Assembly: GCA_963779415.1 (NCBI GenBank)
Contig: CAVZYA010000002.1
Coordinates: 128,001-192,000, forward strand
Origin: an uncultured Acidobacteriota bacterium
GTDB taxonomy: Bacteria > Acidobacteriota > Thermoanaerobaculia > UBA5066
Direction: 5' to 3'
Length of the DNA: 64,000 bases
Below the pieces are notes generated by a model that worked only from the letters and a program-made list of their open reading frames with translations, did not search any database and was not told where the DNA came from. This document shows, piece after piece, positions 8,832-59,880 of the stretch (positions are counted from its first letter, which is position 1; every line of letters starts with the position of its first letter). Both the position numbers and the translations under genes were made by a program.

Positions 8832-11325
<2,494 letters not shown>

Positions 11326-14578: not shown

Positions 14579-15676
14579 GTGTCGCGGCTGAGCGAAGCCC
14601 TTCCGCGAAGGCTCGACCTTCGCCTCCTCGGCGCCGCGCTCGCCCTGACGCTCGTCGGGATCGCGATGATCTACTCGACGACCTCGGGCACGGCGCGGGG
14701 AGACCTCGCGGCGCGGCAGGCGCTCTACACCCTCATCTCGCTCGGGGTCGCCGCCGTCTTCCTCGCGATCGACTACCGGATCCTCCTCGAGTACTCGCCG
14801 GGCCTCTACGGCCTCACCCTCGTCGTCCTCGCGGCCCTCCCGCTCTTCGGGACGCGGATCGCCGGGGCGAAGTCGTGGATCCGCATCGCGGGATTCCAGG
14901 TCCAGCCTTCGGAGCTGGCGCGGATCTCCATCGCCCTCCTCCTCGCCTGGCTCCTCGAACGGGACGACCAGAAGATCGTCCGGACCCGGACCCTCCTCCT
15001 CGTCGGCGTCGCCGTGGGCGTGCCGATGCTTCTCGTCCTCCTCCAGCCCGACACGGGCGTCGCGCTCACCTACGTCCCGTTCATCCTGACGGCCTTCTTC
15101 TTCGGCGGGATGCGGACGAAGTGGTGGGTCGTGCTGATCCTGGGCGGCGCCCTCGCCCTCGGAGGCTCGTGGTTTCTTCTGAAGGACTACCAGAAGGACC
15201 GGATCCGGACCTTCCTCGATCCGAACCTCGCCCTCCGCGGCGCGGGCTACCAGGTCCGGCAGGCCCGCATCGCGATCGGATCGGGAGGAGTCTTCGGAAA
15301 GGGCTTCAAGCAGGGAACGCAGAGCCGGCTCGGCTTTCTCCCGGTGCGCCACACGGACTTCATCTTCGCGGCGCTCGGCGAGGAGTGGGGTTTCGCGGGG
15401 GTCGCGGCGGTCCTCGGCCTCTACGGGGCGTTCCTCGCGCGGGCGGCCCATCTCGCGCGCGACGCGCGCGACCGCGGAGGAGCCCTCCTCGTCCTCCTTC
15501 TCGCCACGAACATCGCCGCCGAGGCGATCTGGAACATCGCGATGAACGTCGGCCTCCTGCCGACGACCGGCATCACGCTCCCGCTCATCTCGTACGGCGG
15601 ATCGTCCCTTTTCGCGACGTGGGGGATGATCGGCCTCATGCTGTCGGTCGCCTACCGGCGGTTTGTTAACGTGTGA
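14579..15676 (+). CDS. rodA: Rod shape-determining SEDS protein RodA
   Basis: GAKSWI, QPSE, LQPDTG, GYQ..Q..IAIGSGG, HTDFIF, LP.TGITLPLISYGGSS. Confidence 0.95.
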   Translation: MSRLSEALPRRLDLRLLGAALALTLVGIAMIYSTTSGTARGDLAARQALYTLISLGVAAVFLAIDYRILLEYSPGLYGLTLVVLAALPLFGTRIAGAKSWIRIAGFQVQPSELARISIALLLAWLLERDDQKIVRTRTLLLVGVAVGVPMLLVLLQPDTGVALTYVPFILTAFFFGGMRTKWWVVLILGGALALGGSWFLLKDYQKDRIRTFLDPNLALRGAGYQVRQARIAIGSGGVFGKGFKQGTQSRLGFLPVRHTDFIFAALGEEWGFAGVAAVLGLYGAFLARAAHLARDARDRGGALLVLLLATNIAAEAIWNIAMNVGLLPTTGITLPLISYGGSSLFATWGMIGLMLSVAYRRFVNV

Positions 15677-15681
15677 GCGCG

Positions 15682-17247
15682 ATGAAAGAGCTTCTCATCT
15701 CGGCCGGGGACCGCGAGACGCGGGTAGCCGTCCTCGAGGACGGGCGCGTGACCGAGGTGCAGATCGAGCGCCGCCGCCAGCGCGGCGTCGTCGGGAACAT
15801 CTACAAGGGGCGCGTCACGCGCGTCCTTCCCGGCATGCAGTCGGCCTTCGTCGACCTCGGCCTCGAGAAGGACGCCTTCCTCTATGTCGCCGACGTCGGC
15901 GAGGAGGTGGACGACTTCGACCGCTTCGGTTCCGCCGAAGAGGAGCCCGAGCCGCTGAAGAGCCTCCCGGAGCCGACGGTTCACAACGGCTTCGAAGAGC
16001 CGGTCGAGGGGGAGGGGGAGGGGCTTACCCCGAAGGCCCCGCTCCCCTCGATCGACGAGCTTCTCCGCGAAGGACAGGAGGTCGTCGTCCAGGTGACGAA
16101 GGACATGATCGCGCACAAGGGGGTGCGGATCACGACCCACGTCACGCTTCCCGGGCGGACGCTCGTCTACATGCCGACGATCGACCACGTCGGCGTCTCC
16201 CGCCGGATCGAGAACGAGGAGGAGCGGAACCGGCTGAAGGAAATCCTGACGGGGTTGAAAAAGGGGCCGGGGGGCTTCATCGTCCGGACGGCCGGCGAGG
16301 GACGGAGCGCCGAGGAGTTCTCCTCCGACCGACGCTATCTGACGAAGCTCTGGGAGCAGATCCGGAAGAAAGCGGAGCGGACGGGCGCGCCCGCCCTCCT
16401 CCACCGCGACCTCGACCTCGCTCTCCGCGCCGCGCGCGACATCTTCGGGCAGGACTTCACGACGCTCTTCGTGGACGACGACGAGGAGTACCAGCGCGTC
16501 GTGGAGTTTCTCGACCAGGTCCAGCCCGAGCTCGTCCAGAAGGTCAAGCTCACCCGGAAGTCGACGCCCCTTTTCGAGGAGTACGGCGTCGAGGCCGAGA
16601 TCGAGAACGCCCTGAAGCCGAAGGTCTGGCTCAAGTCGGGGGGACACATCGTCATCAACCAGACCGAGGCGCTCGTCGCCATCGACGTCAACACGGGGAA
16701 GTTCGTCGGGAAGAGCCGCCTCGAGGACACCGTCCTGAAGACGAACCTCGAGGCCGTGCAGGAGATCGTCCGGCAGATCCGCCTCCGCGACCTCGGGGGG
16801 CTTCTCGTCATCGACTTCATCGACATGGAGGAGGAGCCGCACCGGGCCGAGCTGGTCGCCGCGCTCGAAGGGGAGCTGAGGAAGGACCGTGCCAAGAACC
16901 GGATGCTCCCCGTCTCGGATTTCGGCCTCGTCGAGATCACCCGCAAGCGCCAGCGCCAGAGCCTCGAGCGCGCCCTGACGATGCCCTGCCCCTACTGCGC
17001 CGGGGCGGGGCGGATCAAGAACGTCACGACGATCATCCTCGAGATCCGGAGGGAGATCCTGAAGAAGGTGGACGAGGGGGAGGCCCACTCGCTCCTTCTC
17101 CGCGTCCACCCCGAGATCTATCGCGCCCTCATGGGCGAGGAGCGCCGCCTCGTCGAGGAGCTGGAGGAGCGGATCGGCATGCCGATCCACGTCCAGTCCG
17201 ACGAGCACCTCCACCACGAAGGATTCGACATCGTCCTCGAAGCGTGA
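15682..17247 (+). CDS. rng: Ribonuclease G (Rne/Rng family)
   Basis: GNIYKGRV..VLPGMQSAFVD, QTEALVAIDVNTG, RLRDLGGLLVIDFIDM, CPYC.G.G. Confidence 0.93.
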   Translation: MKELLISAGDRETRVAVLEDGRVTEVQIERRRQRGVVGNIYKGRVTRVLPGMQSAFVDLGLEKDAFLYVADVGEEVDDFDRFGSAEEEPEPLKSLPEPTVHNGFEEPVEGEGEGLTPKAPLPSIDELLREGQEVVVQVTKDMIAHKGVRITTHVTLPGRTLVYMPTIDHVGVSRRIENEEERNRLKEILTGLKKGPGGFIVRTAGEGRSAEEFSSDRRYLTKLWEQIRKKAERTGAPALLHRDLDLALRAARDIFGQDFTTLFVDDDEEYQRVVEFLDQVQPELVQKVKLTRKSTPLFEEYGVEAEIENALKPKVWLKSGGHIVINQTEALVAIDVNTGKFVGKSRLEDTVLKTNLEAVQEIVRQIRLRDLGGLLVIDFIDMEEEPHRAELVAALEGELRKDRAKNRMLPVSDFGLVEITRKRQRQSLERALTMPCPYCAGAGRIKNVTTIILEIRREILKKVDEGEAHSLLLRVHPEIYRALMGEERRLVEELEERIGMPIHVQSDEHLHHEGFDIVLEA

Positions 17248-17290
17248 CACGGACCGCCGGTTGGCAAACGTGACCGGGAGCCGGTTTCCC

Positions 17291-17821
17291 ATGAGCATTC
17301 GTCCTCTCGCCGCCCTGAACGTCTTCGCCTTCGTCTTCTTCCTGACCGGCTGCGTCGGAATTCCCGATGCCGTGTCACCCGTCAATGACTTTCGGCTGGA
17401 GAGGTATCTGGGACGGTGGTACGAGATTGCCCGGCTGGACCATTCCTTCGAACGCGGCTTGACCAGGGTCACCGCAACCGACAGTCTGCGGCCTGACGGC
17501 GGCGTCCGAGTCGTGAACCGCGGCTATTCCCCCAAAGAGAATGCCTGGAAAGAAGCCGAGGGGAAGGCCTATTTCGTGAAGAACGCCGATCAGGGCTACC
17601 TGAAGGTCTCTTTCTTCGGTCCCTTCTACGGCTCGTATGTCGTCTTCGCTCTCGATCACGAGAACTATCAATACGCACTCGTCTGCGGTCCCAACAAGTC
17701 CTATCTGTGGATGCTGGCGAGGTCTCCGGAAGTGCCGGACGCGTTGAAGGAGACGCTCGTGAAAAGGGCCGCCGCTCTCGGTTTCGACATTGGCAAGTTG
17801 ATCTTCGTCGATCAACGCTAG
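17291..17821 (+). CDS. blc: Outer-membrane lipoprotein lipocalin Blc (putative cassette gene)
   Basis: Lipobox LTGC, RYLGRWYEIAR, LKVSFFGPFYG.Y, YLWMLAR. Confidence 0.9.
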   Translation: MSIRPLAALNVFAFVFFLTGCVGIPDAVSPVNDFRLERYLGRWYEIARLDHSFERGLTRVTATDSLRPDGGVRVVNRGYSPKENAWKEAEGKAYFVKNADQGYLKVSFFGPFYGSYVVFALDHENYQYALVCGPNKSYLWMLARSPEVPDALKETLVKRAAALGFDIGKLIFVDQR

Positions 17822-17870
17822 CAGCCGGGACTGAACCATCGCTGCGCTCGCCGCTGAACGGTATCGCTCC
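17810..17870 (+). mobile_element. Degenerate attC-like remnant after blc
   Basis: CGCTCGCCGCTGA (17845-17857) is identical to the L' arm of the attC at 18873-18885. No intact GTTRRRY, so boundaries are approximate. Confidence 0.4.
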
Positions 17871-18065
17871 GCGACGCCCAGGTGCCCGGTCGTCAAGAGA
17901 GTCGGATCGCCCGTTCCCATTCTGCTCGCGATCGTAATCGTTCCGAGGTTCGCGTCCCGGTCACCGCGATCTCACGCCGTCGCGCACCGGCTTACAATGG
18001 TGCACGGACATCAAGACTCCCGAGTACTCCCGGGAGACGATCAACCGGCTGAAGGAGGTTCTTTC

Positions 18066-18494
18066 ATGAGATGTCGGAGAACAGCATACGGCGTTGCTCT
18101 GGCGGTGCTGGTTTCCATGCCGGCGCTCGCGCAACACGGAATGGCAGGCCCGAAGGGCTCGCCGCAGTACGACCCCAAAACCGAGCTGACGGTAAAAGGC
18201 ACGGTCGAGGAAGTCAAGGAATACCCCAGCCAAAGCAGTTGGCGCACCGGCCAGCACGTGACGCTCAAGACGGGCAGCGGCAGTCTCGACGTCCACCTCG
18301 GCCCAACCGATTACTGGAAGAAGAACGGATTTGAACTGGCAAAGGGAGACGCTATCGAGGTGACAGGCTCGAAGAGCAAACTGAACGACGTAGAGGTCCT
18401 GCTCGCTCGCGAGGTGAAGAAGGGCGCTAAGTCTGTGACCCTCCGCGACGCCCAGGGCGTTCCCGCCTGGTCCCGAGGACGACGTTCTCCTTGA
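18066..18494 (+). CDS. Secreted OB-fold-like hypothetical protein (cassette gene)
   Basis: GGAGG RBS; signal peptide ending ALA-Q; YDPKTE.TVKGTV...VHLGP..Y...GD.IEVTGS...LRD..G.P.W pattern. Confidence 0.75.
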   Translation: MRCRRTAYGVALAVLVSMPALAQHGMAGPKGSPQYDPKTELTVKGTVEEVKEYPSQSSWRTGQHVTLKTGSGSLDVHLGPTDYWKKNGFELAKGDAIEVTGSKSKLNDVEVLLAREVKKGAKSVTLRDAQGVPAWSRGRRSP

Positions 18495-18509
18495 ATCGAT
18501 TTTCTCGTC

Positions 18510-18570
18510 GCCGAACCCGCGGCTGCAGCGGACAGGCTTGCGCCTGCCGCGGAGCCGCGAGCCGTCAGAC
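18510..18570 (+). mobile_element. Integron attC site
   Basis: R'' GCCGAAC, 5 nt, L'' GCTGCAGC, central CAGGC-TTGC-GCCTG stem, L' GCGGAGC, spacer, R' GTCAGAC; 61 bp. Confidence 0.7.
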
Positions 18571-18611
18571 AGTTGTCTGTAATTTGCTTGCATCTTGAGC
18601 AAGGAGGCTTT

Positions 18612-18806
18612 GTGGCAAAGTGCCCTCACTGCAATCAGCCCGTCACTCTCGAGAAGACTCATCGGGAAACAGGCGACCTGCCCGATGACGTTCACAAGGA
18701 CGTCGTCGGTATTGTAAAGAAGGAGATCATGTACTCCTGCCCTCACTGCAATGCGGTTCTGGGTTTCGGTTTCTTTTTTGGTGGATTACTCACCGGGAGG
18801 CCCTAG
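18612..18806 (+). CDS. Small zinc-ribbon protein (cassette gene)
   Basis: AAGGAGG RBS, GTG start, two CPHC motifs; lies between two attC sites. Confidence 0.7.
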   Translation: MAKCPHCNQPVTLEKTHRETGDLPDDVHKDVVGIVKKEIMYSCPHCNAVLGFGFFFGGLLTGRP

Positions 18807-18842
18807 GGTCATTGCTTTCCGACGACCTCCAGATTTCCATCC

Positions 18843-18902
18843 GTCTCACTGTGCGTTCCCGCGGACTCGCTCCGCTCGCCGCTGAGCTTGATATCGTCAG
18901 GC
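18843..18902 (+). mobile_element. Integron attC site (degenerate)
   Basis: R'' GTCTCAC, 5 nt, L'' GTTCCCGC, ...CGCTCGCC, L' GCTGAGC, 8 nt, R' GTCAGGC; 60 bp, same layout as 18510-18570. Confidence 0.6.
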
Positions 18903-18921
18903 GGCAAGGAGAATCGTTGGC

Positions 18922-19143
18922 ATGAGTCAGAAGCTCTATCTCAGCCTCTCCGGCTTGATTTTTCTTCTCGTCGGAGTGCTTCACTTTCTGAGGCTTCTTT
19001 ACCATTGGCCGGTCATGGTCGGGCCCAGAACCATTCCGTATGCCCTGTCGTTCATCGGGTGCCCGGTCGCGCTCGGGTACTCGGTATGGGCCGCCTGGCT
19101 CCTCCGGGTGGAGAGGGTGGGTGGGCACCACGCGGCCCCGTGA
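18922..19143 (+). CDS. Small two-TM membrane protein (cassette gene)
   Basis: AAGGAG RBS just after the attC; two hydrophobic helices; IF.LV..LH..RL...W pattern. Confidence 0.65.
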   Translation: MSQKLYLSLSGLIFLLVGVLHFLRLLYHWPVMVGPRTIPYALSFIGCPVALGYSVWAAWLLRVERVGGHHAAP

Positions 19144-19170
19144 ACGACGCCCGGGAATTTGGGGCCGCGT
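19130..19170. repeat. 10-bp inverted repeat between convergent genes (possible terminator)
   Basis: ACGCGGCCCC (19130-19139) / GGGGCCGCGT (19161-19170). Confidence 0.35.
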
Positions 19171-19209
19171 CTCGATTGGCAATTTCGGGACGCTGTTTCC
19201 CCAAGGCTT

Positions 19210-21381
19210 TCAGAACCCCACTTCCAGCGTCACCATCACGCTTCGTGAGGCGAGAGGGTAGTAGTAGGGGATTCCGGAGTACGTGAGGCCGCCCTGGGCG
19301 TCCGCCGTGGCGTAGAGGTACGAGTAGCCGCTCGGCCAGAGCCGCTTGTCGTTCAGGAGGTTCTCGGCCTGGATCCTCAGGCTCGGCTTGCCGGGGAGCG
19401 CGCCCTCGAGGTCGATCAGGATCCCGGCCCCGAGGGTGAAGAAATCCGGCGTCACGAGGTCGCTCACGTTCGTGTTGTCGAGGAAGCTCTGCGCCACATA
19501 GCGCCCGTTCGCGGAGAGCGTGATCCACGGCAGGACGTCCCACTCGGCATTGAGATTCGCGACCAGCTCGGGCGTCAGGAGCGGCGCCACGTCCGAGAAG
19601 GTCCGGCTGACGCTCCCCGTGAGGTTTCCCGCGGCGTCGTAGAGGTCGTAGTACTGCGTCCAGGAGCTGATCCGGTTCCGGCTGGCGTTCAGCGTCGCCC
19701 CGAGACGGAGTGACTTGAGGGGCTGCCACTTCGCGTCCATCTCGAACCCGCGGCGGTAGCTCCGGGGGACGTTCTTCGAGATCGGAAGGCCGGTCGGCGC
19801 CAGCTCGCCGGTGAGCGCGATCTCGTTCCTGAACTCCATGTCGTAGACGTTCGCGTGGACCGTCATGGTGGACGTCCTGAAATCGATCCCCGCCTCGATG
19901 TCCGTCAGCTCCTCCGGCTTGACGGCATCGAAATCGGGGAGAACCGATGCGTCGTCCTGGCCCATGAGGAGATCGCCCCGCTGGGGCTCGCGGGAGGTCC
20001 GCCCGACCGAGGCATAAGCGGAGAGCGTCCGGGAGAGATCGAAGCGGGCGCCGATCTTCGGGTTGAAGAAGACCCAGCTCTTCGCCTCGTCGCCGGCGCC
20101 GCCGGAGTACCGGAACTCGGCCCACCGCACCTGGGCGTCGCCGAGAAGGTGCCATGGACCGGAATTCCACGCGACCTTCGCGAAGCCGTTCGCCTCGGAC
20201 TTGTAACCGTGATTCTCGTATTCCTCCGGTCCGTCCGTGAGGCCGCCGGTGTGGGTGCTGACGAAACTGCTCCCGTGCCCGCCGAGCGTGAAGTTGACCG
20301 GATCGCCGTCGTACCGGTAGGTCAGCGCGCCGCCGGCCCTCCACCAGTCGAGGCCGTACTGGAAGAGCTGGTTCGCGGCCTGGTCCTGCCAGACCCGGTA
20401 CGTCCCGCCGGCGTTTCCGAAGTACCCCTGCACGGCGAGGCTCGAGACTCCGGAGAGGACCTTCGTGAACTGCGCCTGGACGAGCGACTGCCAGAAGGAG
20501 TCGTTCTCCTCCGGCGTCATCGGGTTGTCGCGCGGGTTCGCCTCGAGAGCGGACTCCTCGGAGGCGAGAAAGGCGAGCTGCGTCTTCTCCCGCCCGTAGA
20601 AGCCGGAAAGACGGAAGGCGGAATCGGCCACCTCGCGGGTGACGCCCCAGAAGAGGCTCCCCTGCTTCACGCCCGAGTTGTCGCGGTAGCCGTCCGTGTC
20701 CTGCAGCGACGCCTTCACCCAGAGCTTCAGGTCTGGGCCGAAACGCCCCGACTGGACCTCGGCGCCGACCCGTTCGGTCCCGAAGGATCCGGCTCCGAGC
20801 CGCGCGGCGACGCCGAAGCCCTCGGACGGTTCGACGCTCTCGAAGCTGACGGAGCCTCCGTACGAGGCGGAGCCCCAGGTGGACGTGCCGACGCCGCGCT
20901 GGATCTGGAGGCTCCCGAGGGAGCCGGCAAAGTCCGCGAAGTTCGCGAAGTAGAAGGTCGAGTCCTCCGGGTCGTTCAGAGGCGCCCCGTCGAACGTCAG
21001 GTTGAGGCGCGTCATCTGGACGCCGCGGATCGAGATGTACGAGTAGCCGTTCGGTCCGCCCGACTCGGAGTAGAAGGTGACGGACGGAGCGGCCGAAAGA
21101 AGCGTTGGCATCTCCTGCCCGTTGTCCTCTTTCCGGATCACACTCCCTGAAATGTCGGTCTTCGTCACCGGCGCCGTCTCCTCGGCCCGGATGGCCGAGA
21201 CGGTCAGGCTCTCGCTCTTCCGGATCTCGGGCGGGGGCGTCGGCGTCGGCACGGGTGTCGGCGTCGCCGTCGGCCGGGGGACCGACGGATCGTCGGCCCG
21301 CGCCGTCGCTCCGAAAAGGGGCAGAGAGAGAAAGAAGAGAAGCGTTCCTGCGAGCTGCCTTGTTCCATGGCCTCTTGCCAT
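19210..21381 (-). CDS. TonB-dependent receptor, probable thiamine/thiamine-precursor transporter
   Basis: Signal peptide, PT linker, plug motifs ISIRG...RLNLTFDGAPLNDPED, IQRGVGTS, beta-barrel, terminal F. ATG 21381 has a GGAGG RBS; downstream of a TPP riboswitch. Confidence 0.88.
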   Translation of the reverse strand: MARGHGTRQLAGTLLFFLSLPLFGATARADDPSVPRPTATPTPVPTPTPPPEIRKSESLTVSAIRAEETAPVTKTDISGSVIRKEDNGQEMPTLLSAAPSVTFYSESGGPNGYSYISIRGVQMTRLNLTFDGAPLNDPEDSTFYFANFADFAGSLGSLQIQRGVGTSTWGSASYGGSVSFESVEPSEGFGVAARLGAGSFGTERVGAEVQSGRFGPDLKLWVKASLQDTDGYRDNSGVKQGSLFWGVTREVADSAFRLSGFYGREKTQLAFLASEESALEANPRDNPMTPEENDSFWQSLVQAQFTKVLSGVSSLAVQGYFGNAGGTYRVWQDQAANQLFQYGLDWWRAGGALTYRYDGDPVNFTLGGHGSSFVSTHTGGLTDGPEEYENHGYKSEANGFAKVAWNSGPWHLLGDAQVRWAEFRYSGGAGDEAKSWVFFNPKIGARFDLSRTLSAYASVGRTSREPQRGDLLMGQDDASVLPDFDAVKPEELTDIEAGIDFRTSTMTVHANVYDMEFRNEIALTGELAPTGLPISKNVPRSYRRGFEMDAKWQPLKSLRLGATLNASRNRISSWTQYYDLYDAAGNLTGSVSRTFSDVAPLLTPELVANLNAEWDVLPWITLSANGRYVAQSFLDNTNVSDLVTPDFFTLGAGILIDLEGALPGKPSLRIQAENLLNDKRLWPSGYSYLYATADAQGGLTYSGIPYYYPLASRSVMVTLEVGF

Positions 21382-21445
21382 CGCCCGCCTCCCGGCTTCG
21401 TGCGTCCACACGAAGTCCTCGAAGCGGAACCCTCGGAGGTTGATC

Positions 21446-26045: not shown

Positions 26046-27742
26046 ATGACGTACATCGCCGACGCCCTCAGGAACAATCCGGAGCTCGCGATCTTCCTCA
26101 CGCTCGCGATCGGCTTCCTCGTCGGGCGCGTGAGGTTCGGCACGTTCAAGCTCGGCAACGTCGTCGGGACGCTCCTCGCGGGCGTCGTCGTCGGACAGCT
26201 CGACATCCAGGTTGACCCGGTCGTCAAGCTCGTTTTCTTCGACCTCTTCCTCTTCGCCACGGGGTACAAGGTGGGGCCGCAGTTCTTCCGCGGGCCTGAA
26301 GAAGAACGCCCTCACACAGGTTTCGTTGACGCTGGTCCTCTGCGTCACGAGCCTCGTGACCACCGTCGCCGCCGCGAAGATCTTCAAATACGACTGCGGG
26401 ACGGCGGCGGGCCTGATGGCCGGGGCCTTCACGGAGTCGACGGTGATCGGGACGGCGGGCGAGACGATCAACCGACTCCCCCTCCCGGAGCTCGAGCGGA
26501 AGCGCCTTCTCGACCAGATTCCCGTGGCCTATGCCGTCAGCTACCTCGTCGGGACCGGCTTCGTCGTCTGGTTCCTCTCGGGCCTCGCGCCGAGGCTCCT
26601 CAAAGTGAACCTGAAGGAAGAGGCGAAGAAGCTCGAGGCGACGCTCTCGGGTGGGCCCACACGTGAGGAGGGCGTCCAGTCGGCCTACCACGAATGGGAC
26701 GCACGGGCGTACCAATTGCCCGAGAAATGGGCGGGGAAGACGGTGGGGGTGTTCGAAGCGCTCCTTCGCTCCTGCTCGCATTTTCGTCAAGAGAATCAGA
26801 AGGGGGAAGAGGGAGAAGAGAGAAGATCTTCTTAGAAGGTGAAGAGGGGACCGCGCTCGCATCGGGCGACGTCGTGGCCATTGCCGCGCGCCGGCCCATT
26901 CACCTTTCTAAGAAACCTTCCTTCGGCGTCGAGGTCGAGGACCGCGAGCTTCTCGACTGGCCCGTCGTCGTCGCGGACGCCGTCGTGACGAGCCGCGAAG
27001 CGTCTGAGACGGACGCTCGCCGAGCTGGCCGAGTCGCACGGGCGCGGCATCGCACTTCTCAAGCTGGTCCGCGGCACCGAGGACGTGCCCGTGGCGCTCG
27101 GGACCGTCGTGAACCGTGGCGACCTCCTCCGCATCGCGGGCGCGCCCGCGGACGTCGAGCGCGCCGGGAAGGCCCTCGGCTACGTCGAGAGGCCGTCGAG
27201 CGAGACCGACGTCGTCTTCGTCGGCCTCGGGATCCTTCTCGGCGGCTTCGTCGGGCTCCTCTCCGTGACCGTCGGCGGCCTACCCCTCAGCCTGACGGCC
27301 AGCGGCGGCGCCCTGATCATGGGACTCGTCTTCGGGTGGCTGCGGTCCGTGCGCCCGACGTTCGGCCGCATTCCCGAGCCCGCCCTCTGGGTCTTCGACA
27401 CGGTCGGGCCTCGCGGTCTTCATCGGCGTCGTCGGCCTCTCCGCCGGGCCGAGCTTCGTCTCGGGGCTGAAGGAGACGGGGCCGAGCCTCCTTCTCGTCG
27501 GCCTCATCGTCGCCGTCACGCCGCACATCGCCGCCCTCTTCTTCGGGCGATACGTCCTCAAGATGAATCCCGTCCTCCTCTTCGGCGCCTGCGCCGGAGC
27601 CGGGACCGTCACGGCCGCGCTCCGGGGAATCCAGGACGAAGCGGGAAGCAAGCTCCCCGTCCTCGGCTACACCGTCCCCTATGCGATCGGGAACATCCTC
27701 CTGACCGCCTGGGGACCCGTCATCGTGATGCTCACGAAATAG
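26046..27742 (+). pseudogene. aspT: AspT/YidE family aspartate:alanine antiporter, frameshifted (probably assembly errors)
   Basis: Consecutive frames give GYKVGPQFF, AG.MAGAFTES.VIG, TrkA-C region, GGALIMGL.FGW, GACAGAGT.TAAL, GYTVPYAIGN. Frame breaks near 26295, 26760-26830, ~27005 and ~27407. Confidence 0.82.
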
Positions 27743-27753
27743 GAGGTCCGTCC

Positions 27754-28851
27754 ATGGCAAGAAACCGCTTCGTCCCCATCGCTCTCATGCTGCTTCTCCT
27801 GCTCGCCGCCGGCCCGGCCGCCTACGCCGGGCCGCAGTCTGCCGCGCCCGCCGCGCAGCCGGCTCTCCCTACGGTCGTCGTTCTCGCCACAGGGGGCACG
27901 ATCGCGGGTGCCGCCGCCACCGACGTGCAGGCCGGCTACACCTCCGGCCAGGTCGGGGTCGAACAGCTCCTCGCCGCGGTGCCCCAGGCGAAGAAGCTGG
28001 CCAACCTCCGGGGCGAGCAGATTTCGAACATCGGGTCGCAGGACATGAACGACGAGGTGTGGCTGAAGCTGGCAGGCCGCGTCAACGAGCTTGTCGCGAT
28101 GCCCGACGTCGCCGGCGTCGTCATCACGCACGGCACCGACACGATCGAGGAGACCGCGTTCTTCCTCAACCTCGTCGTGAAGTCGAAGAAGCCGGTCGTC
28201 CTGACGGCGGCGATGCGTCCGTCGACCGCGCTCTCGGCCGACGGCCCGCTCAATTTCTTCAACGCCGTGGCCGTCGCCGCAAACAAAAACGCCGCCGGGC
28301 TGGGCGTCCTCGTCGTCATCAACGACTGGATCCACGGGGCGTCGTCCCTCACGAAGACCAGCACGACAGCGGTGCAGACCTTCATGTCGCCTCTCCGGGG
28401 TCTCGTCGGCACCGTCGCCTACGGCGAGGCCGATTTCTTCTGCGGCCCCGTCGGCCGGAACACGGTGAACTCCGACTTCTCGCTGGAGGGCGTGAAGACC
28501 CTGCCGCGCGTCGACATCGTCATGGCCTACGAGAACATGGATGGCGCGCTCATCGACGCCGCGGCCGCGGCCGGGGCCAAGGGGATCGTGATCGGGGGCG
28601 TCGGCAACGGGAACATGACGGAGCCGGCCGTGAAGGCCCTCGCCGCCGAGGCGAAGAAGGGCGTGGTTTGCGTAAGGTCGTCACGCGTGGTGACGGGGCG
28701 CGTCGGACGCAACGTTGAGCTGGACGACGACAAGCTGGGATTCGTCGCCTCGCTCGGCATGAACCCCCAGAAGGCGCGGGTCCTCCTTCGCCTCGCGCTC
28801 CTCAAGACGAACGACGTCAAGCAGATCCAGAAGTACTTCGAAGAGTACTGA
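27754..28851 (+). CDS. ansB: Type II (periplasmic) L-asparaginase
   Basis: AGGAGG RBS, signal peptide, ATGGTIAG, IGSQDM, HGTDTIEET, SADGP.N, NPQKAR.LL. Confidence 0.92.
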   Translation: MARNRFVPIALMLLLLLAAGPAAYAGPQSAAPAAQPALPTVVVLATGGTIAGAAATDVQAGYTSGQVGVEQLLAAVPQAKKLANLRGEQISNIGSQDMNDEVWLKLAGRVNELVAMPDVAGVVITHGTDTIEETAFFLNLVVKSKKPVVLTAAMRPSTALSADGPLNFFNAVAVAANKNAAGLGVLVVINDWIHGASSLTKTSTTAVQTFMSPLRGLVGTVAYGEADFFCGPVGRNTVNSDFSLEGVKTLPRVDIVMAYENMDGALIDAAAAAGAKGIVIGGVGNGNMTEPAVKALAAEAKKGVVCVRSSRVVTGRVGRNVELDDDKLGFVASLGMNPQKARVLLRLALLKTNDVKQIQKYFEEY

Positions 28852-30082: not shown

Positions 30083-31106
30083 ATGTCGATCCTCCGCGCC
30101 CTCGGCCTGGCCGCCGTCTCGGCAGCTCTCGTCCTCGCCGCCCCCGCCCCGGCCCAGACTCCCGACGAGATCCAGAAAGCGGTGAACGCGGCCTACGAGA
30201 AGTACAAGGACCTCAAGGAAGGGAGAACGCCGACTACATCCCGGCCCTCGCCAAGGTCGACCCGAAGATCTACGGCATCGCGCTCGTGACGCCGGACGGC
30301 AAGGTCTACACCGCCGGCGACGTCACGTCCGAGGTCTCGATCCAGTCCATCTCGAAGGTCTTCACGATGGCGAAGGTCATCGAGGAGCAGGGCCTCGACG
30401 CGATCGTCAAGACGATCGGCGTCGACGCGACCGGGATGCGGTTCAACTCGATCGTCGCGGTCGAATTCGCCAAGAAGACGCTCGGGGGACCCGAAATCAA
30501 CCCCCTCGTGAATCCGGGAGCCATCACGGCGACGAGCATGCTGAAGGGCACGACGCCGCGACGAGATCTGGAAGGGCCTCCTCGCGACCTACTCCGACTT
30601 CGCGGGGCGCCCGCTTTCCGTGAACCAGGAAGTCTTCAAGTCCGAGTCGGAGACGAACCAGCGCAACCAGGCCATCGGCTACCTGATGTACGCCTACGAG
30701 TACATCAAGTCCGACCCGATGCGCGCGACGGACATCTACACCGAGCAGTGCTCCGTGAACGTCAACGCGAAGGACCTCGCGACGATGGCCGCGACGCTCG
30801 CCAACGGCGGGAAGAACCCGCTGACCGGCAAGCAGGTCATGAAGACCGCGAACGTCCCGGGGATCCTCGCCGTGATGGCGACGGCCGGCCTTTACGACAA
30901 CTCGGGCAAGTGGCTCTACGCGACCGGGCCTGCCGGCCAAGAGCGGCGTGGGGGGCGGCATCATCGCCGTCGCGCCGGGCAAGTTCGGGATCGCCGTGAT
31001 CTCGCCTCCTCTCGACGACGCCGGCAACAGCGTCCGCGCCCAGAAGGCCATCGCCGACATCTCGAACGCCCTGAAGGCCAACCCCCTCGCATCGACACCG
31101 CGTTGA
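30083..31106 (+). pseudogene. glsA: Glutaminase A with signal peptide, frameshifted (probably assembly errors)
   Basis: NADYIP.LA, SIQSISKVF catalytic motif, [33 protein letters not shown]. Frame breaks near 30222, 30557, 30927. Confidence 0.85.
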
Positions 31107-31134
31107 AAGAGGTTCTTGCGGAGAAAGATCCCCC

Positions 31135-32524
31135 TTGACGCGTTGCCGGGCCGGACTGATCGCGCTGATTCTGTCGTTCTCCGCGGGACTTCCGGCGGGA
31201 GCCCAGGAGCCTCCGCCACCGTCTGAAAAGGCGGACGCGGCGCCCGCGGCCGAAGAAAAGGCCGAAGAGAAGACGACCCGTTGGGTCTACTCGTGGGACG
31301 GGTGGGAGGGTCTCCGCCTCGGATTGATCCGGAAAACGAGGTGGAAGAACCCGCCGGAGGTCTATGTCCTCGCGCCCAAAGGGCCAGACGCCGAGCCGCT
31401 CCTCGACTTCGAGGAGGTGAAGCTGACCTCCCGGATCGGCGTCCGGCTCGCGGGGGACGCCGCGGCCTTTCACACGACCGGGAGCCTGACGGACTTCGAC
31501 GACGGCGCGGACTTCAGGCGCGCCCGCCTCTTCCTCAACGGGGACTGGACCCTCGTCGTCCCGCTCGAGTACAGCATCGAGCTCGGCTACACCCCGAACA
31601 AGTTCGTTCTGAGCGATGCGTGGCTTCTCTTCCCGGAGCTGAAATACGTCGGACCGACCAAGCTCGGCCAGTTCCAGCCGCCTCAGGGCCTCGACGTCAT
31701 CAACAGCAGCTGGGCCATCACCTTCATGGAGCCGGCGGCGCCGCTTCAGGCCCTCGCGCCGGGAACCAACGCCGGCATCCAGGTGGGCCGGCCCGTTCTC
31801 GACAGCCGCGCGACCTGGTGGCTCGGAATCTTCGGGAACGGGGCCGGGGCCAAGGAGTACGGGCTCGTCGCGAGCAGCTATGGGAGCGTCATCGGCCGGG
31901 CCACGTGGCTCGCGATTCAGCAGGGCGGATCGGAAGAATCACCCGTGCCGCAGTTTCTCCATGTCGGGCTGAGCACGAACCTTCTCCTCACCTCGAGCGA
32001 CACCATCCGTTACCAGTCGCGTCCGGAGAGCTACATCGCGCCTTACGTCATCGACACCGGCGATCTCTCCGCGCACAGCGCCATGACGCTCGGTGCGGAG
32101 GTCGCCTGGGTGAACGGGCCCTTCTCGCTGCAGGCGGAGTTTCTTCACTCCTGGGTCGACCGGACGGAGGGTGACCGCCTGAACTTCGGCGGCTATTACG
32201 TCTCCGCGAGCTGGTTTTTGACCGACGAGAGCCGCCCCTATGATCCGTAAGAGCGGGAAGTTCACGTTCGTCAACCCGCAGAAGGACTTCAACTGGAAGA
32301 AGGGGGACTGGGGCGCCTTCGAGCTGGCGTGCCGCTACTCGTTCACCAATCTGACGAACCAGGGTATCCAGGGCGGCCGCCTCAACATGCTCATGGGCGG
32401 GCTGAACTGGTACCTGACGTCCCACATCCGGTTGTACCTCAACGTCGGGGCAGGAAGGGTCACCGGGACGGCCTCGGTGGGAAACATGACCATCGCCCAG
32501 ATGCGACTGGCGGTCTTCATGTAG
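31135..32524 (+). pseudogene. OprO/OprP family anion-selective porin, frameshifted near 32245
   Basis: FRRARL, GQF.PP.GL, ITFME.A, G.YV.ASWFLT.E.RPY, then GAFELACRYS..L and GLNWYL in the next frame. Confidence 0.8.
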
Positions 32525-48245: not shown

Positions 48246-48634
48246 CGCGACTCCTTGCGGCGTCCCCCGGAGGTCAGGGCGTGCACCTTCCGGCGAAGCT
48301 CCTCGACGCGGAACGGCTTTCTCAGGTGGTCGGTGCCGCCCACCTGAAGGGCCGTGATCTGGTCGCGCAGCTCGCCCCGCCCGGTCAGGAAGAGGACGGG
48401 GACGTTCTGCGTCGCCGTCTGCCGGCGGACGATGTCACAGAGCTCCCAGCCGTTCAGACCGGGCATGTTCACGTCGAGAACGAGGAGATCCGGGGGGTCC
48501 GCGAGGACGGCCAGAAGTCCGGCGCGGCTGTCGCTCGCCCCGGCGACCCGGTAGCCCTCGCCCGAGAGGGCCTCCGCGACGGCCGTGACGAGAGAGGGGT
48601 CGTCGTCGACGATGAAGACCGACGGGTTCGTCAT
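48242..48634 (-). CDS. Single-domain response regulator (receiver)
   Basis: IVDDD, LDVNMPG, LFLTG, KPF; ATGA-coupled to upstream kinase and downstream EAL gene. Confidence 0.9.
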   Translation of the reverse strand: MTNPSVFIVDDDPSLVTAVAEALSGEGYRVAGASDSRAGLLAVLADPPDLLVLDVNMPGLNGWELCDIVRRQTATQNVPVLFLTGRGELRDQITALQVGGTDHLRKPFRVEELRRKVHALTSGGRRKESR

Positions 48635-49873
48635 GCGACCTCCGGTCTGTAGAGCGGGAACATGATCGTCACTTCCAGGCCGCGCCCCGGATCGGACAGG
48701 AGCGAGATCTTCCCGCCCTGCGCCTCGAGGAGCTCGCGAACGAGCGCGAGACCCAGCCCGCGCCCTTCGGCTCCCGAGGCCCGGGCCGCCTCGCCGCGAT
48801 AGGCGTACTCGAAGGCGCGCCTCTGCTCTTCGCGCGTCATGCCGATTCCCGTGTCGCTGATCACCACGAACGCGTGCTGGGCGGCGACGCTCGCGCGGAT
48901 CTTGACCTGTCCGCCGGACGGCGTGTACTTCACCGCGTTGTCGAGGACGTTCCGAAGCGCCCTCTGGATGGCGACGGGATCGGCCGCCACGACGATCTCC
49001 TCCTCGTCCGCGACGAACTCGATCAGGAGCCTCTCTCCGTGCGCGGCGCCGTAAGACGCCGCGAGCGAGTCGAGGAGCTTCAGAAGGTCGGTTCGGGGCC
49101 GCGGGCGGGGAGGCGGGGCGACCGGAGCGGCGCGGAGCGGGGCGGACGACGCCGGCGAGCGACTCCATCAGGCCGATCTCGTTTCCGAGGTTCGCCAGGT
49201 GCTCGGGGCGCGGCGGCTCCCCGCGACGCGCGCTCTCCGCGATGAGGTCCGCGTAAACCCGTACGACCGAAAGCGGCGACTTCAGATCGTGGAGAAGATC
49301 CTGCCTGGCGTCGCGAGCCGGGGACGTTTGCGAAGGGACGGCCCGGCTCCCGGTCGTCGCCGGGGCGTCGTTCCGGCTCTCCACGGCGGGCGCCGCCGCG
49401 AGAAGCCGGCCCCCGGCTTCGAGAACCAGGAGGACGGCCAGTGGCCAGACGACGCGAAGGACGGGCCCGACCGGAGGCGGAACGCCGCCGACCACGGCCG
49501 GCACCGCGAGCGCCGCCGCGCCGGCGGTCGCCGCCACGGCCAGAAAGCGTCCGGCGGGTGCTCCGTGGCCGACGCGCGCGAGAACGACCTCCAGGAGGAG
49601 AAGCGGATAGAGCTCGCTCGTGACTCCCCCCGTCAACGACAGCGCGAAGAGGACGAGCGTGAGAGAGGCGCCGAGGTCGACGGGGAGGGCAAAGACCCCG
49701 AAGGTGCGGCCGACGGACGGAACGAGGAGAAAGGCGCGCAGCGCCACGGCCCCGCCCGCGACCGCCGCAAGGCGAGGGACTTCCGGCGCCGCGGCGGCAC
49801 CGGAAGCCAGGACGAGGAGAATGGCGATGAGGAGCAGACCGGTCGAAAGGAGACCGCGCGCGAGGCTGCTCAC
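48631..49873 (-). pseudogene. Membrane sensor histidine kinase, frameshift near 49135
   Basis: TM helices, H-box HDLKSPL; HATPase boxes NVLDNAVKYT, DTGIGM, GRGLGL in a second frame. Confidence 0.82.
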
Positions 49874-57601: not shown

Positions 57602-57720
57602 ATATATAACCGAAAAACGATCCCACGGTGACCGGCGTCACGGGCGCGCGGGTGGGATCCGAGTGCCCGTTCCCCACTTCGCACGAAGACGGCGGCTCCC
57701 GACGAGCCGCGGGAGGGTGT

Positions 57721-59880
57721 ATGGGTCGACGTGTATTCGCCGGTGTCGCGCTCCTTGTCGTGACGGTGGCCATGTCCGCGCTTGTTCTCGGCCTCGCGGG
57801 CGCCGCAGGAGGGACCGGCTGGACCGTCGTCGGCTGGAACAATCTCGGGATGCACTGCATGGACGCCGATTTCAGCGTCTTCGCGATCCTCCCCCCCTAC
57901 AACACGATCCAGGCCCAGGTGATGGATCCGACGGGGGCGCTCCTCACGAGCGCGTCTGGCGTCACGGTGACGTACGAGGGGATCGCCGACTCGACGGGAT
58001 CGATCAACACGACGTCCGCCGAAAAGACGAACTTCTGGGACCACGTCCATGATCTCTTCGGCGTCACGCTCGGGGTCAACGCCGGCCTGAAGGGAAAGAA
58101 CATGCCGGGGGCCGGGAACCCGTCCCAGCCGATGACGTTCGACCCGGCGCTGAACTGGTTCATCGCCGAGGGAATTCCGATCACGCCCTATGACGACGCG
58201 GGGAACAAGAATACCTACCCCCTCATGCGGGTGAAGGCGCGCAACGCCTCGGGAGCGCTCCTCGCCTCGACCGACATTGTCCTTCCCGTTTCCGACGAGA
58301 TGGACTGCACGGCGTGCCACGCTTCCGGCAGCGTCGCTGCGGCGAAGCCGTCGTCGGGATGGGTCTTCGACCCGAATCCCCAGCGCGATTACCGGCTCAA
58401 CATCCTCAGGCTCCACGACGACCGGAACCTCGGCAATCCGGTCTACCTCGCGGCCCTGATCGCCGCCGGATACAACGGCGCGGGGCTCTATCAAACCGTC
58501 ACCGTCGACAACAAGGCCGTCCTCTGCGCGAACTGTCATCTCTCCGAGGCCCTGGCCGGCTCCGGTCGCCCCGGAATCTCGGCGCTCACGCGCGCCGTGC
58601 ACACCCGCCACTCGGGCGTCATCGACCCGACGAACGGCCTGCCGCTCGACAGCACCCTGAACCGTTCGGCCTGCTACCGCTGCCACCCCGGCTCGACGAC
58701 GCGCTGCCTCCGCGGCGTCATGGGCGCGGCAGTCGCGGCGGACGGCTCGCTGGAGATGCAGTGCCAGAGCTGTCACGGCCTGATGTCGGCCGTCGGCTCC
58801 CCGTCGCGGACCGGATGGCTGGACGAGCCCTCCTGCGGCAATTGCCACACGGGGACGGCCGTCGTTAACAGCGGCCAGATCCGCTATACGTCCGCGCTCA
58901 CCTCCGGGGGAACCCGCCGCGTCCCGGCCGATCCGACGTTCACGACGAACGCGAACACGCCCGCGGCCGGCTTCTCTCTCTACCGCTTCTCGAAGGGACA
59001 CGGCGGCCTCCAGTGCTCCGCCTGCCACGGCTCGACGCACGCCGAGTACCCCGCCGCCCACCCGAACGACAATCTCCAGTCCCTCGCCCTGCAGGGACAC
59101 GTCGGGACGATCGGGGAGTGCGCCACGTGCCACAACGCGAGCCCCCAAACGACGAACGGCGGCCCGCACGGAATGCACCCCGTAGGCGCCGCCTGGGTCT
59201 CCGCTCACGCGGACGCCGCCGAAGGCGGCCGCACGGCCTGTAAGGCCTGCCACGGCACCGACTACCGGGGCACCGTCCTCTCCCGCGCCTTCGCAATCCG
59301 GACGCTCTCCACCCGGTACGGAACGAAGTCGCTCTGGCGCGGCTTCACCGTCAGCTGCTACCTCTGCCACAACGGGCCGGGGGGCGAGGGGACCAGCCCG
59401 AACCATCCGCCGGTCGTGACGAATCTCGCCGTGACGGCGGCACCGAACGTCCCGAAGGCGATCGCCCTCTCGGCGACGGACGCGGACGGCGACCCGTTGA
59501 CCCTCCGGATCGTGAATCAGCCAGCGAGCGGAAGTTCGGGCCTCGCCGGAATGACGGCGACGTACCATCCTCCCGCCGGTTTCACGGGGATCGACACCTT
59601 CACCTACGCGGCGTGGGATGGTTCATCCGACTCGAATCTCGGCACAGTGACCGTGACGGTCGGCAGCCCGCCGGGACCGACGCCGACGCCGACACCGGTA
59701 GCGACGAGGACGCCGACGCCCGGACCGACCGCGAGCCCCACCCGGACGCCAACACCCGGGCCGACGGCTACTCCCACCCGCACTCCGACGCCCGCCCCCA
59801 CGGCCACGAGGACCCCCAGGCCGACGCGGACGCCGACGGTCACGCCGACACCGACCCCGACGCACCGCCGCGACGACTGA
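57721..59880 (+). CDS. Secreted nine-haem cytochrome c with Ig-like domain and Pro/Thr tail
   Basis: Signal peptide, WNNLGMHC N-domain, nine CxxCH (CTACH, CANCH, CYRCH, CQSCH, CGNCH, CSACH, CATCH, CKACH, CYLCH), [10 protein letters not shown]...F.G.DTFTY Ig-like domain. Confidence 0.88.
59672..59862 (+). repeat. Coding low-complexity Pro/Thr repeat ([11 protein letters not shown] units)
   Basis: C-terminal tail of the cytochrome. Confidence 0.7.

Follow-up and report, generated by a model that had tools for sequence, protein, structure and literature searches.

How four small, co-oriented genes of divergent base composition came to lie between rng, the gene for RNase G, and a convergent gene for a TonB-dependent receptor is the question raised by a 1,962-bp islet (17248-19209) in contig CAVZYA010000002.1 of an uncultured Acidobacteriota bacterium; the whole stretch analysed, 64,000 nucleotides long, is called the window below. 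The genes encode a Blc-type lipocalin, a secreted OB-fold protein, a Zn-ribbon protein and a protein with two hydrophobic segments (2-TM, two-transmembrane). The folded bottom strand of attC, the recombination site of a gene cassette, is the substrate that integron integrases recombine, at AAC/GTT triplets. An earlier note, made from the sequence alone, had proposed that the islet is a decaying cassette array without integrase, inserted after rng. This proposal is supported by the absence of the genes from the locus in relatives, by the ranking of the sites in a covariance search and by the background of a 1.26-Mb scan, and we conclude that the islet is probably the relic of an integron gene-cassette array whose attC sites have mutated past mobility.

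Base Composition and the Locus in Relatives

The islet, preceded by the gene row mreB-mreC-mrdA-rodA-rng, has a G+C content of 60.0% with a profile that falls to 0.53-0.62, in a window of 68% G+C. All four open reading frames (ORFs) lie on the forward strand, each with its own Shine-Dalgarno sequence (AAGGAGG twice, AAGGAG and GGGAG). Their description in the earlier note as less GC-biased small genes was confirmed, as were the ORFs and families: the G+C content at third codon positions (GC3) is 0.757, 0.713, 0.646 and 0.770 in gene order (0.65-0.77), compared with 0.88-0.94 in the six neighbouring genes.

A comparison with relatives, which the earlier note had suggested, was based on 79 rng loci found by a genome scan for RNase G and taken with up to 10 kb on each side; the best related contigs by RNase G are metagenome-assembled genomes of the Thermoanaerobaculia class. 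In tblastn searches with nine window proteins, the blc, OB, Zn-ribbon and 2-TM genes were absent from all 79 loci, which supports insertion. The rng gene is 78-94% identical in about 39 of the 79 loci, and rodA and rng are syntenic in these close relatives. In the four relatives compared, the similarity to the window ends at the rng stop codon.

The receptor still adjoins rng in four loci (L001, L036, L002 and L019), with different contents in the gap. In L001, the closest relative (rng 94% identical), the gap of 570 bp is exactly filled by two opposite-strand genes (10593-11082), for a ParE toxin (Pfam 1.1e-6) and for an RHH antitoxin (2.3e-6), without an attC-like site. The gap of L019 holds PnuC and an AAA_28 ATPase, and that of L002 a near-identical PnuC-like ORF, read from the sequence and identified without a domain scan. 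In L036 (rng 88%) the gap measures about 90 bp. The gap between the convergent rng and receptor genes is variable, and the four genes are lineage-specific; together with the shift in composition, this argues for acquisition here rather than loss in the relatives. Judged from these sequences, the gap appears to be a general landing spot for accessory genes. In L036 (860-1030), the gap is made up of a direct duplication, 27 bp long, of the 3' end of rng with its stop codon, which flanks a 55-bp G-rich hairpin; this resembles the trace left by a small insertion with target duplication, or else an artefact of assembly.

attC-like Sites in the Spacers

According to Ghaly et al. 2021 (PMC8352920), Acidobacteria are among 11 taxa that have their own chromosomal attC type. 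Supplement 4 of that paper gives a model built from 120 attCs, with a consensus length of 106 and a sensitivity of 30% at the authors' cut-off. Its arms read GCCTAAC AACTC GTTGAAGCGGAC GG and CCGCCGCTTAAC TCG AGC GTTAGGC, and p exceeds 0.99 at A5, A6, C7, A18, U89, G100, U101 and U102, including AAC and GUU (PMC8352920, supplement 4). The 26 left and 25 right arm positions were applied as weight matrices against a null of 68% G+C, with the model's insertion points allowed, to both strands of 1.256 Mb (the window and its relatives), that is, to 2.5 million starts. Two sites in the spacers of the islet stand out: 18843-18902 (site 2) ranks 7 with 10.5 bits and 18510-18570 (site 1) ranks 10 with 9.1 bits, both with exactly the boundaries proposed in the earlier note. 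For the 585 intergenic gene-strand positions of the islet, about 0.002 starts this high are expected and two were seen; the remaining eight of the top ten starts have no attC-like hairpin in register. For 20 real class 1 attCs, the same matrices give -10.3 to 60.1 bits, with 7 of them at <=11.6; the scan gauges general attC likeness, not lineage. Site 1 matches the consensus at 17/26 positions in the left arm (13.6 bits) and 14/25 in the right (-0.6 bits), and site 2 at 15/26 in the left arm (0.3 bits) and 19/25 in the right (14.2 bits, despite -7.8 bits for GTC).

A left arm scoring about 12 bits next to a poor right arm was also seen at the same position in four related loci (L015:1513-1582, L016:1514-1583, L014:342-411 and L023:1505-1609). 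This conserved sequence is probably coding and mimics the R''-L'' arm; consequently, a single good arm is not evidence by itself.

Both sites show the box order R''-spacer-L''-loop-L'-spacer-R' in the known attC register and align end to end with the model arms, the left arm without insertion and the right arm with a 2-nt insertion after position 96, where the model is insertion-prone. Site 1 (forward strand), read as an eroded attC, comprises R'' GCCGAAC, a 5-nt spacer, L'' GCTGCAGCGGAC, a short loop, L' GCCGCGGAGC, an 8-nt spacer and R' GTCAGAC (18564-18570); it keeps AAC in R'' but has GTC in R'. Site 2 (forward strand), read as a more eroded attC, comprises R'' GTCTCAC (18843-18849), a 5-nt spacer, L'' GTTCCCGCGGAC, a loop, L' GCCGCTGAGC, an 8-nt spacer and R' GTCAGGC (18896-18902), with the triplets CAC and GTC. 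Both core sites are therefore GTC, as the earlier note had read them. The note had further taken the 6/7 match of GTCTCAC to the reverse complement of GTCAGAC as a trace of a former circle; the count is correct, but it adds little, since it stems for the most part from the likeness of both boxes to the self-complementary consensus.

In-register pairs were counted from the structure line of the model (1-7 with 106-100, 13-15 and 17-21 with 93-86, and 24-26 with 84-82). Site 1 has 4/7 in the R helix, 7/8 in the L helix and 3/3 in the upper helix, and site 2 could form 6/7, 7/8 and 1/3, so that each totals 14/18. Among the other 298 top candidates, 6 reach at least 7/8 L-helix pairs and 4 reach at least 14/18 in total. 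Several pairs of site 1 differ from the consensus on both sides (17-90 C-G, 14-92 C-G and 25-83 A-T), and site 2 likewise has C-G at 17-90; the C-G pairs at 17-90 and 14-92 replace the A-U and U-A pairs of the consensus. In both sites, furthermore, the GAC of L'' occupies positions 22-24, as in the gcuC, cmlA1 and aadA1 attCs (7+5+12 nt from R'').

Of the palindromes of about 60 bp with attC layout that the earlier note described, site 1 contains a real hairpin and site 2 does not fold as one. The spacer 18495-18611 contains a strong imperfect hairpin (z -4.36 on the forward and -2.90 on the reverse strand), and the L helix of site 1 with its loop is the minimum-energy fold on either strand (-22.1 and -20.8 kcal/mol). 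Within this fold, G18525 and A18532 remain unpaired and coincide exactly with model positions 16 and 23, where the published Acidobacteria model has no pairs either; the unpaired bases thus lie where the earlier note had expected extrahelical ones. In the VchIntIA-VCR (Vibrio cholerae repeat) structure, the integrase reportedly reads extrahelical bases. The layout of site 2, on the other hand, is visible only when it is aligned to attC models: its spacer (18807-18921) folds no better than shuffles (z +0.29 and +0.75), as do the remaining islet spacers. Directly after site 1, and overlapping its R', lies a small terminator-like hairpin, CAGACAGTTGTCTG, with a T-rich tail (18566-18589, forward strand), picked by a terminator scan that is weak, with 4 such sites found against 2.2 expected.

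Covariance Models Built from Class 1 attC Sites

The covariance search that the earlier note had recommended was performed with two stand-in models. For these, 20 natural attCs were taken from R100 and twelve other plasmid regions with class 1 integrons and fixed by their R''/R' anchors, aadA5 being left out as unclear; a MAFFT alignment of 15 attCs misplaced the R' boxes of long sites and was not used. The first model, R1, was built from 7 short class 1 attCs with the canonical R/L-box structure, and a broader one, R2, was rebuilt from 17 class 1 attCs. Of 13 attCs outside its training set, R1 recovered 8 (21-57 bits) and failed to find the other 5; overall, R2 brought no gain in sensitivity: it lost catB2 and still missed four others. 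The E-values of both models are rough, because the calibration was shortened.

With filters off, the window contains 7 R1 matches at E <=10, of which sites 2 and 1 are the best two, both on the gene strand. The best match covers the full model (1-60 of 60) at 18843-18902 with 17.1 bits and E 0.044. The second, at 18522-18555, is partial, comprising the L boxes and loop, with 11.1 bits and E 1.9. In 804 kb (the window and 52 related loci), 18843-18902 is the only match of R1, with E 0.55. The outcome of the search is accordingly divided: R1 ranks both sites as the best two, and R2 scores both as noise. A search of 17000-19500 with Rfam 15 at E <=10 gave one noise match (a eukaryotic long non-coding RNA, E 4.9) and nothing attC-like.

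Erosion of the Sites and the GTC Core

Each site keeps 14 of the 17 model positions with a consensus p >=0.85. Site 1 shows U4->G, U89->G and U102->C, and site 2 A5->C, A18->C and U102->C. All six losses run from A/U to G/C and affect 6/20 A/U cells as compared with 0/14 G/C cells (hand count; hypergeometric p ~0.03), which is expected of unselected sequence in a genome with GC3 >0.9. Opposite the C of GTC, R'' carries A (site 1) or C (site 2), so neither is compensated by G. The missing compensating G, the other near-invariant losses and the p >0.99 of GUU in the model argue that GTC is a product of decay and not a new specificity; on this pattern of substitutions, the shared GTC is best described as belonging to the erosion toward G+C. 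The relaxed genomic targets of IntI1 described by Loot et al. (10.1101/2022.09.11.507474) still keep GWT, with T as the third base. The earlier note had offered two explanations of GTC. Immobilisation fits the erosion, and an altered integrase specificity does not agree with the lack of compensation or with the unfolded site 2.

Stump and Repeats in the Spacers

The spacer behind blc carries a candidate attC stump (17830-17872, forward strand), with R''-like ACTGAAC (17830-17836) followed by a 19-mer that corresponds to the loop and part of L' of site 2, a 6-nt spacer and GCTCCGC at the place of R'. It is called a stump because it is 43 nt long and lacks the L'' arm; its right arm agrees with the consensus at 16/25 positions (counted by hand), and the score of no arm exceeds 0 bits. 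The remnant that the earlier note had placed at 17845-17857 is real and longer than described, forming a 19-nt repeat, 18/19 identical, between 17839-17857 and 18867-18885. No further copy was found at <=2 mismatches in the 1.256 Mb. The 13-mer within it was considered as a dispersed repeat family and rejected, with 15 matches at <=2 mismatches against 11.8 expected and only two exact copies. An arm-matrix scan detected no attC-like arm after the 2-TM gene.

An exact 16-nt copy of the C-terminal coding sequence of the OB gene (LRDAQ) starts inside the stump (17867-17882, forward strand); its counterpart in the OB gene lies at 18441-18456 (E 7.7e-4), and these are the only exact copies in the 1.256 Mb. 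Overprinting of an old attC by the tail of the OB gene was ruled out, TLRDAQGVPAWSRGRRSP being conserved across 15 OB family members. Because of this conservation, the copy probably remains from an OB-family gene copy since lost and is not an attC feature. GCGTTCCCGC recurs at 18457-18466 and 18853-18862. Short common pieces thus connect the OB 3' end with the three spacers, their order being permuted, and no single deletion or duplication accounts for them.

The Four Genes

All four genes are cassette-like in appearance. The first (17291-17821, forward strand) encodes a predicted Blc-type outer-membrane lipocalin lipoprotein with the lipobox LTGC (Pfam Lipocalin_2, 4.2e-40; NCBIfam Blc, 3.6e-66 and 222 bits, under the 267-bit cut-off). 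Lipocalin genes occur in Vibrio cholerae cassettes (VlpA). The second (18066-18494, forward strand; ribosome-binding site AAGGAGG) encodes a predicted secreted OB-fold protein with a signal peptide, assigned by a precomputed match to PF26390 and weak matches to MamS (3.6e-6) and OB/DUF6152. The third (18612-18806, forward strand; GTG start, ribosome-binding site AAGGAGG) encodes a 64-aa protein with two CPHCN knuckles and a hydrophobic tail, for which only sub-threshold Zn-ribbon Pfam matches were obtained. The fourth (18922-19143, forward strand) encodes a 73-aa protein without a Pfam or NCBIfam family, in which two hydrophobic segments are evident from hydropathy. The attC-like sites begin 15 nt past the OB stop codon and 36 nt past the Zn-ribbon stop codon.

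At E <=1e-3, the OB protein belongs to a large family of 788 proteins (its own copy counted), the closest being 92-93% identical. The Zn-ribbon protein has 408 homologues, 67-88% identical among the 120 matches listed, and the 2-TM protein 22 including its own copy, the other 21 being 67-86% identical. Judged by these homologues, the three ORFs are real genes. Among the OB and Zn-ribbon homologues, the few records that are named bear Acidobacteriota names. A tblastn search of plasmids with the OB and Zn-ribbon proteins returned 5 distant cyanobacterial hits (31-38% identity) and no match, which gave no informative context. Within the 195-bp Zn-ribbon gene, both zinc knuckles are encoded by an exact 15-nt repeat, TGCCCTCACTGCAAT (18621-18635 and 18738-18752), which suggests internal duplication or conversion.

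Relation to Known Integron Elements

The absence of an integrase, also part of the earlier proposal, was borne out in the window: none of the 42 ORFs has a Phage_integrase match, a tblastn search with IntI1 of R100 gave no match at E <=10, and no intI pseudogene was detected near the islet. Clusters of attC sites that lack an integron-integrase (CALINs) are defined by Cury et al. 2016 (10.1101/030866) as at least 2 attC sites within 4 kb, on one strand, without an integrase. The origins named there are loss of intI, rearrangement and insertion at secondary sites, and lone attCs may reflect cassette degradation (10.1101/030866). The islet resembles a CALIN in its two attC-type sites, which lie on one strand within 4 kb of each other, its co-oriented small ORFs between them and the lack of a nearby intI. 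Its small size also agrees, as 1362 of the 2961 CALINs counted in 10.1101/2022.09.11.507474 have only 2 cassettes. In contrast to a CALIN, its sites fail the AAC/GTT triplets and neither stand-in model scores convincingly; one site is unfoldable, one is a stump and one is missing. The class is, moreover, defined by IntegronFinder model calls, whereas the islet was judged with stand-in models. Since the triplets are a defining feature, the islet is filed as a degenerate derivative, not a member, of the functional attC/CALIN class.

With the chromosomal attCs of Acidobacteria (Ghaly et al. 2021, PMC8352920), the sites share the R/spacer/L-box register and the unpaired positions. They differ in length, the model consensus having 106 positions and the islet sites 60-61 nt with almost no central loop, and in changes at A5, A18, U89 and U102, which are more than 99% invariant in that model. 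Integrases also insert cassettes at genomic GWT sites (attG), where expression is possible near bacterial promoters (Loot et al., 10.1101/2022.09.11.507474). The resulting insertions, described in the same source as single attC sites lacking integron-integrases (SALINs) and small CALINs, lie in the chromosome outside the integron platform, as the islet does. They are expressed only downstream of a host promoter (10.1101/2022.09.11.507474), and the co-orientation of the islet genes with the rng operon fits this. This route is a possible origin for an integrase-less array between two core genes; unlike the islet, however, such an insertion is predicted to have an intact attC and the target WT at the right junction, and none is detectable after the last gene. 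In Xanthomonas, loss of the integrase leaves stable frozen arrays (10.1101/2025.06.18.660453; Gillings et al. 2005 as cited there). Like the islet, these behave as ordinary chromosomal genes, and two-cassette CALINs are conserved within a pathovar (10.1101/2025.06.18.660453). Their attCs are still called by models and their platform lies at the conserved ilvD locus (10.1101/2025.06.18.660453), whereas the attCs of the islet are eroded and no platform was seen. Intrinsic terminators and repetitive extragenic palindromic (REP)-like elements resemble site 1, with a GC-rich stem-loop past a stop codon followed by a short hairpin and a T-rich run. Terminators lack the R''/L''/L'/R' box order and the fixed 7+5+12 register, and site 2 and the stump are not hairpins; the islet motif, with only two copies in 1.26 Mb, does not form a dispersed repeat.

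Alternative Explanations

Several observations weigh against a relic of a cassette array. The defining AAC/GTT triplets are broken, with CAC in site 2 and GTC in both sites, and only 4/7 R-helix pairs are left in site 1. Site 2 has no stable attC fold, the attC-register structure costing +3.7 to +7.5 kcal/mol. The blc gene is followed by a stump only, and the last gene, 2-TM, by no attC at all. Scores of 9-10 bits in the arm scan are at the low end of those of true attCs. The stand-in models disagree, R1 giving 17.1 and 11.1 bits and R2 9.6 and 9.0 bits, which places the sites at ranks 7 and 10 of 11 weak window matches; with default filters, R2 finds no match in the window. R1 in turn over-weights gcuC and cmlA1, the training attCs that most resemble both sites, and its E-values for 18843-18902, between 0.044 and 0.55 according to the size of the search, come from a shortened calibration. 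Of the four proteins, three are members of well-conserved families (22 to 788 homologues, 50-93% identity), unlike the orphans typical of cassettes. Formally, deletion in the relatives instead of insertion here would also account for the absence of the genes.

An ordinary horizontally acquired or lineage-specific islet, in which GC-rich hairpins act as terminators or stabilisers and the attC likeness is due to chance, is unlikely but deserves serious weight. The small hairpin with its T-rich tail directly after site 1, the noise-level scores in R2, the empty Rfam search, the lack of an integrase in 64 kb and the origin of the proteins from widespread families would all suit it, and the ParE/RHH pair in L001, without attC, indicates that the spot takes insertions by other routes. 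Chance likeness is nevertheless difficult to reconcile with two independent attC models (class 1 plasmid and Acidobacteria) that both select the two intergenic sites specified beforehand, on the gene strand and at a level where only 8 other starts lie in the 2.5 million and about 0.002 are expected in the islet spacers. Both sites, moreover, show the 14/18 register that 4/298 top background candidates reach, and exactly the distance of real attCs from R'' to the GAC of L''. A terminator role would explain neither the attC arms of site 2 nor the 19-mer that it shares with the stump, as site 2 is not a hairpin. That the four genes are ancestral at the locus and were deleted in the sampled relatives, their composition reflecting weak expression, is improbable. 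The gap does vary among the relatives, and the few named records of OB and Zn-ribbon homologues bear Acidobacteriota names. This history conflicts, however, with the absence of all four genes from 79 loci, among them five separate lineages in which rng and the receptor still adjoin, and with a GC3 that is 0.13-0.29 below all six neighbouring genes, and it leaves the attC-like sites unexplained.

The sites could also be working attCs of a lineage whose integrase cleaves G/TC and not G/TT. The same T-to-C change stands at the same position in both R' boxes, the lineage is uncultured with its integrases unstudied, and site 1 still folds well. A working GTC would need G opposite it in R'', but A.C and C.C mismatches are found there, uncompensated in both sites; other near-invariant positions are lost as well (U4 and U89 in site 1, A5 and A18 in site 2), and site 2 cannot take the attC fold. 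AAC and GUU have p >0.99 in the 120 Acidobacteria attCs of PMC8352920, even the relaxed IntI1 targets of 10.1101/2022.09.11.507474 keep GWT, and the window holds no integrase. We regard this reading as very improbable. We would give equally little credit to the variant in which GTC serves as a working core for an unknown Thermoanaerobaculia integrase, or another single-strand recombinase, that cleaves G/TC and tolerates the mismatch opposite; the islet would then remain mobile, as a cassette array with a new class of specificity.

Proposed History of the Islet

If the islet is a cassette relic, each unit would originally have consisted of a promoterless ORF and an attC. The array, or a multi-cassette circle cut from one, would have landed between the convergent rng and TonB-dependent receptor genes. 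Without an integrase nearby, the attC sites would then have drifted under the G+C pressure of the host. Site 1 would have kept its L-box hairpin and site 2 would have lost its fold, while the site after blc would have shrunk to a stump and that of the last gene vanished. The cassettes would now be fixed. Their transcription probably depends on read-through from the rng operon, as each gene keeps its own ribosome-binding site, and the hairpin of site 1, together with the small hairpin over its R', may now serve as a terminator or attenuator.

Flanks and Other Features of the Window

On the left, the islet is bounded by rng (15673-17247, forward strand; Pfam RNase_E_G 1.5e-104), the final gene of its row, at whose stop codon homology with the four relatives ends. 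The left junction (17248-17290, forward strand, 43 nt) has no attI-like or attC-like feature and no predicted terminator. It contains GTTGGCA at 17259-17265, which fits GWT but is uninformative, one GWT being expected by chance in 43 nt. The right junction (19144-19209, forward strand, 66 nt) shows no attC-like arm and a weak hairpin only (z -0.73 and -0.97). It is followed by the TonB-dependent receptor gene (19210-21411, reverse strand; Pfam Plug and TonB_dep_Rec_b-barrel), convergent with rng and with orthologues adjoining rng in the four loci named above. No sigma-70-like promoter was predicted in 17000-19400. With regard to transfer RNA or transfer-messenger RNA genes as an integration target, the only two tRNAs of the window lie at 54.7 kb and none near the islet. 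Direct repeats flanking the islet (17275-17290 and 19186-19201) were dismissed as chance, since 106 of 2000 shuffles score equally and other places in the window score higher.

Elsewhere in the window, several ORFs match Pfam families only in part (26212-28851, 30620-31138 and 48631-48990). An Asp-Al_Ex permease is divided between two ORFs, of which the second is fused to an asparaginase; a glutaminase match spans only profile positions 131-233 of 286, and another ORF consists of a histidine-kinase ATPase domain only. These partial matches are frameshifts, pseudogenes or assembly errors. At 57628-59880, multihaem cytochrome c7/MtrC-like motifs occur together with Big_9 and cadherin-like domains in a 750-aa protein, which may be an extracellular electron-transfer protein.

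Implications

The fate proposed here is an ordinary one for an element of a known kind, in a phylum that is under-sampled; it leaves the known integron mechanism unchanged and adds one locus. If the reading as a relic is true, the islet would illustrate, in a little-studied phylum, how the integron life cycle ends: cassettes turned into ordinary chromosomal genes through the erosion of their attCs, and this erosion would track the G+C bias of the host. Relics of this kind score below the thresholds of attC models, so that surveys of CALINs would under-count them. The near-invariant A/T positions of attC may, in turn, give a rough clock for the time since immobilisation.

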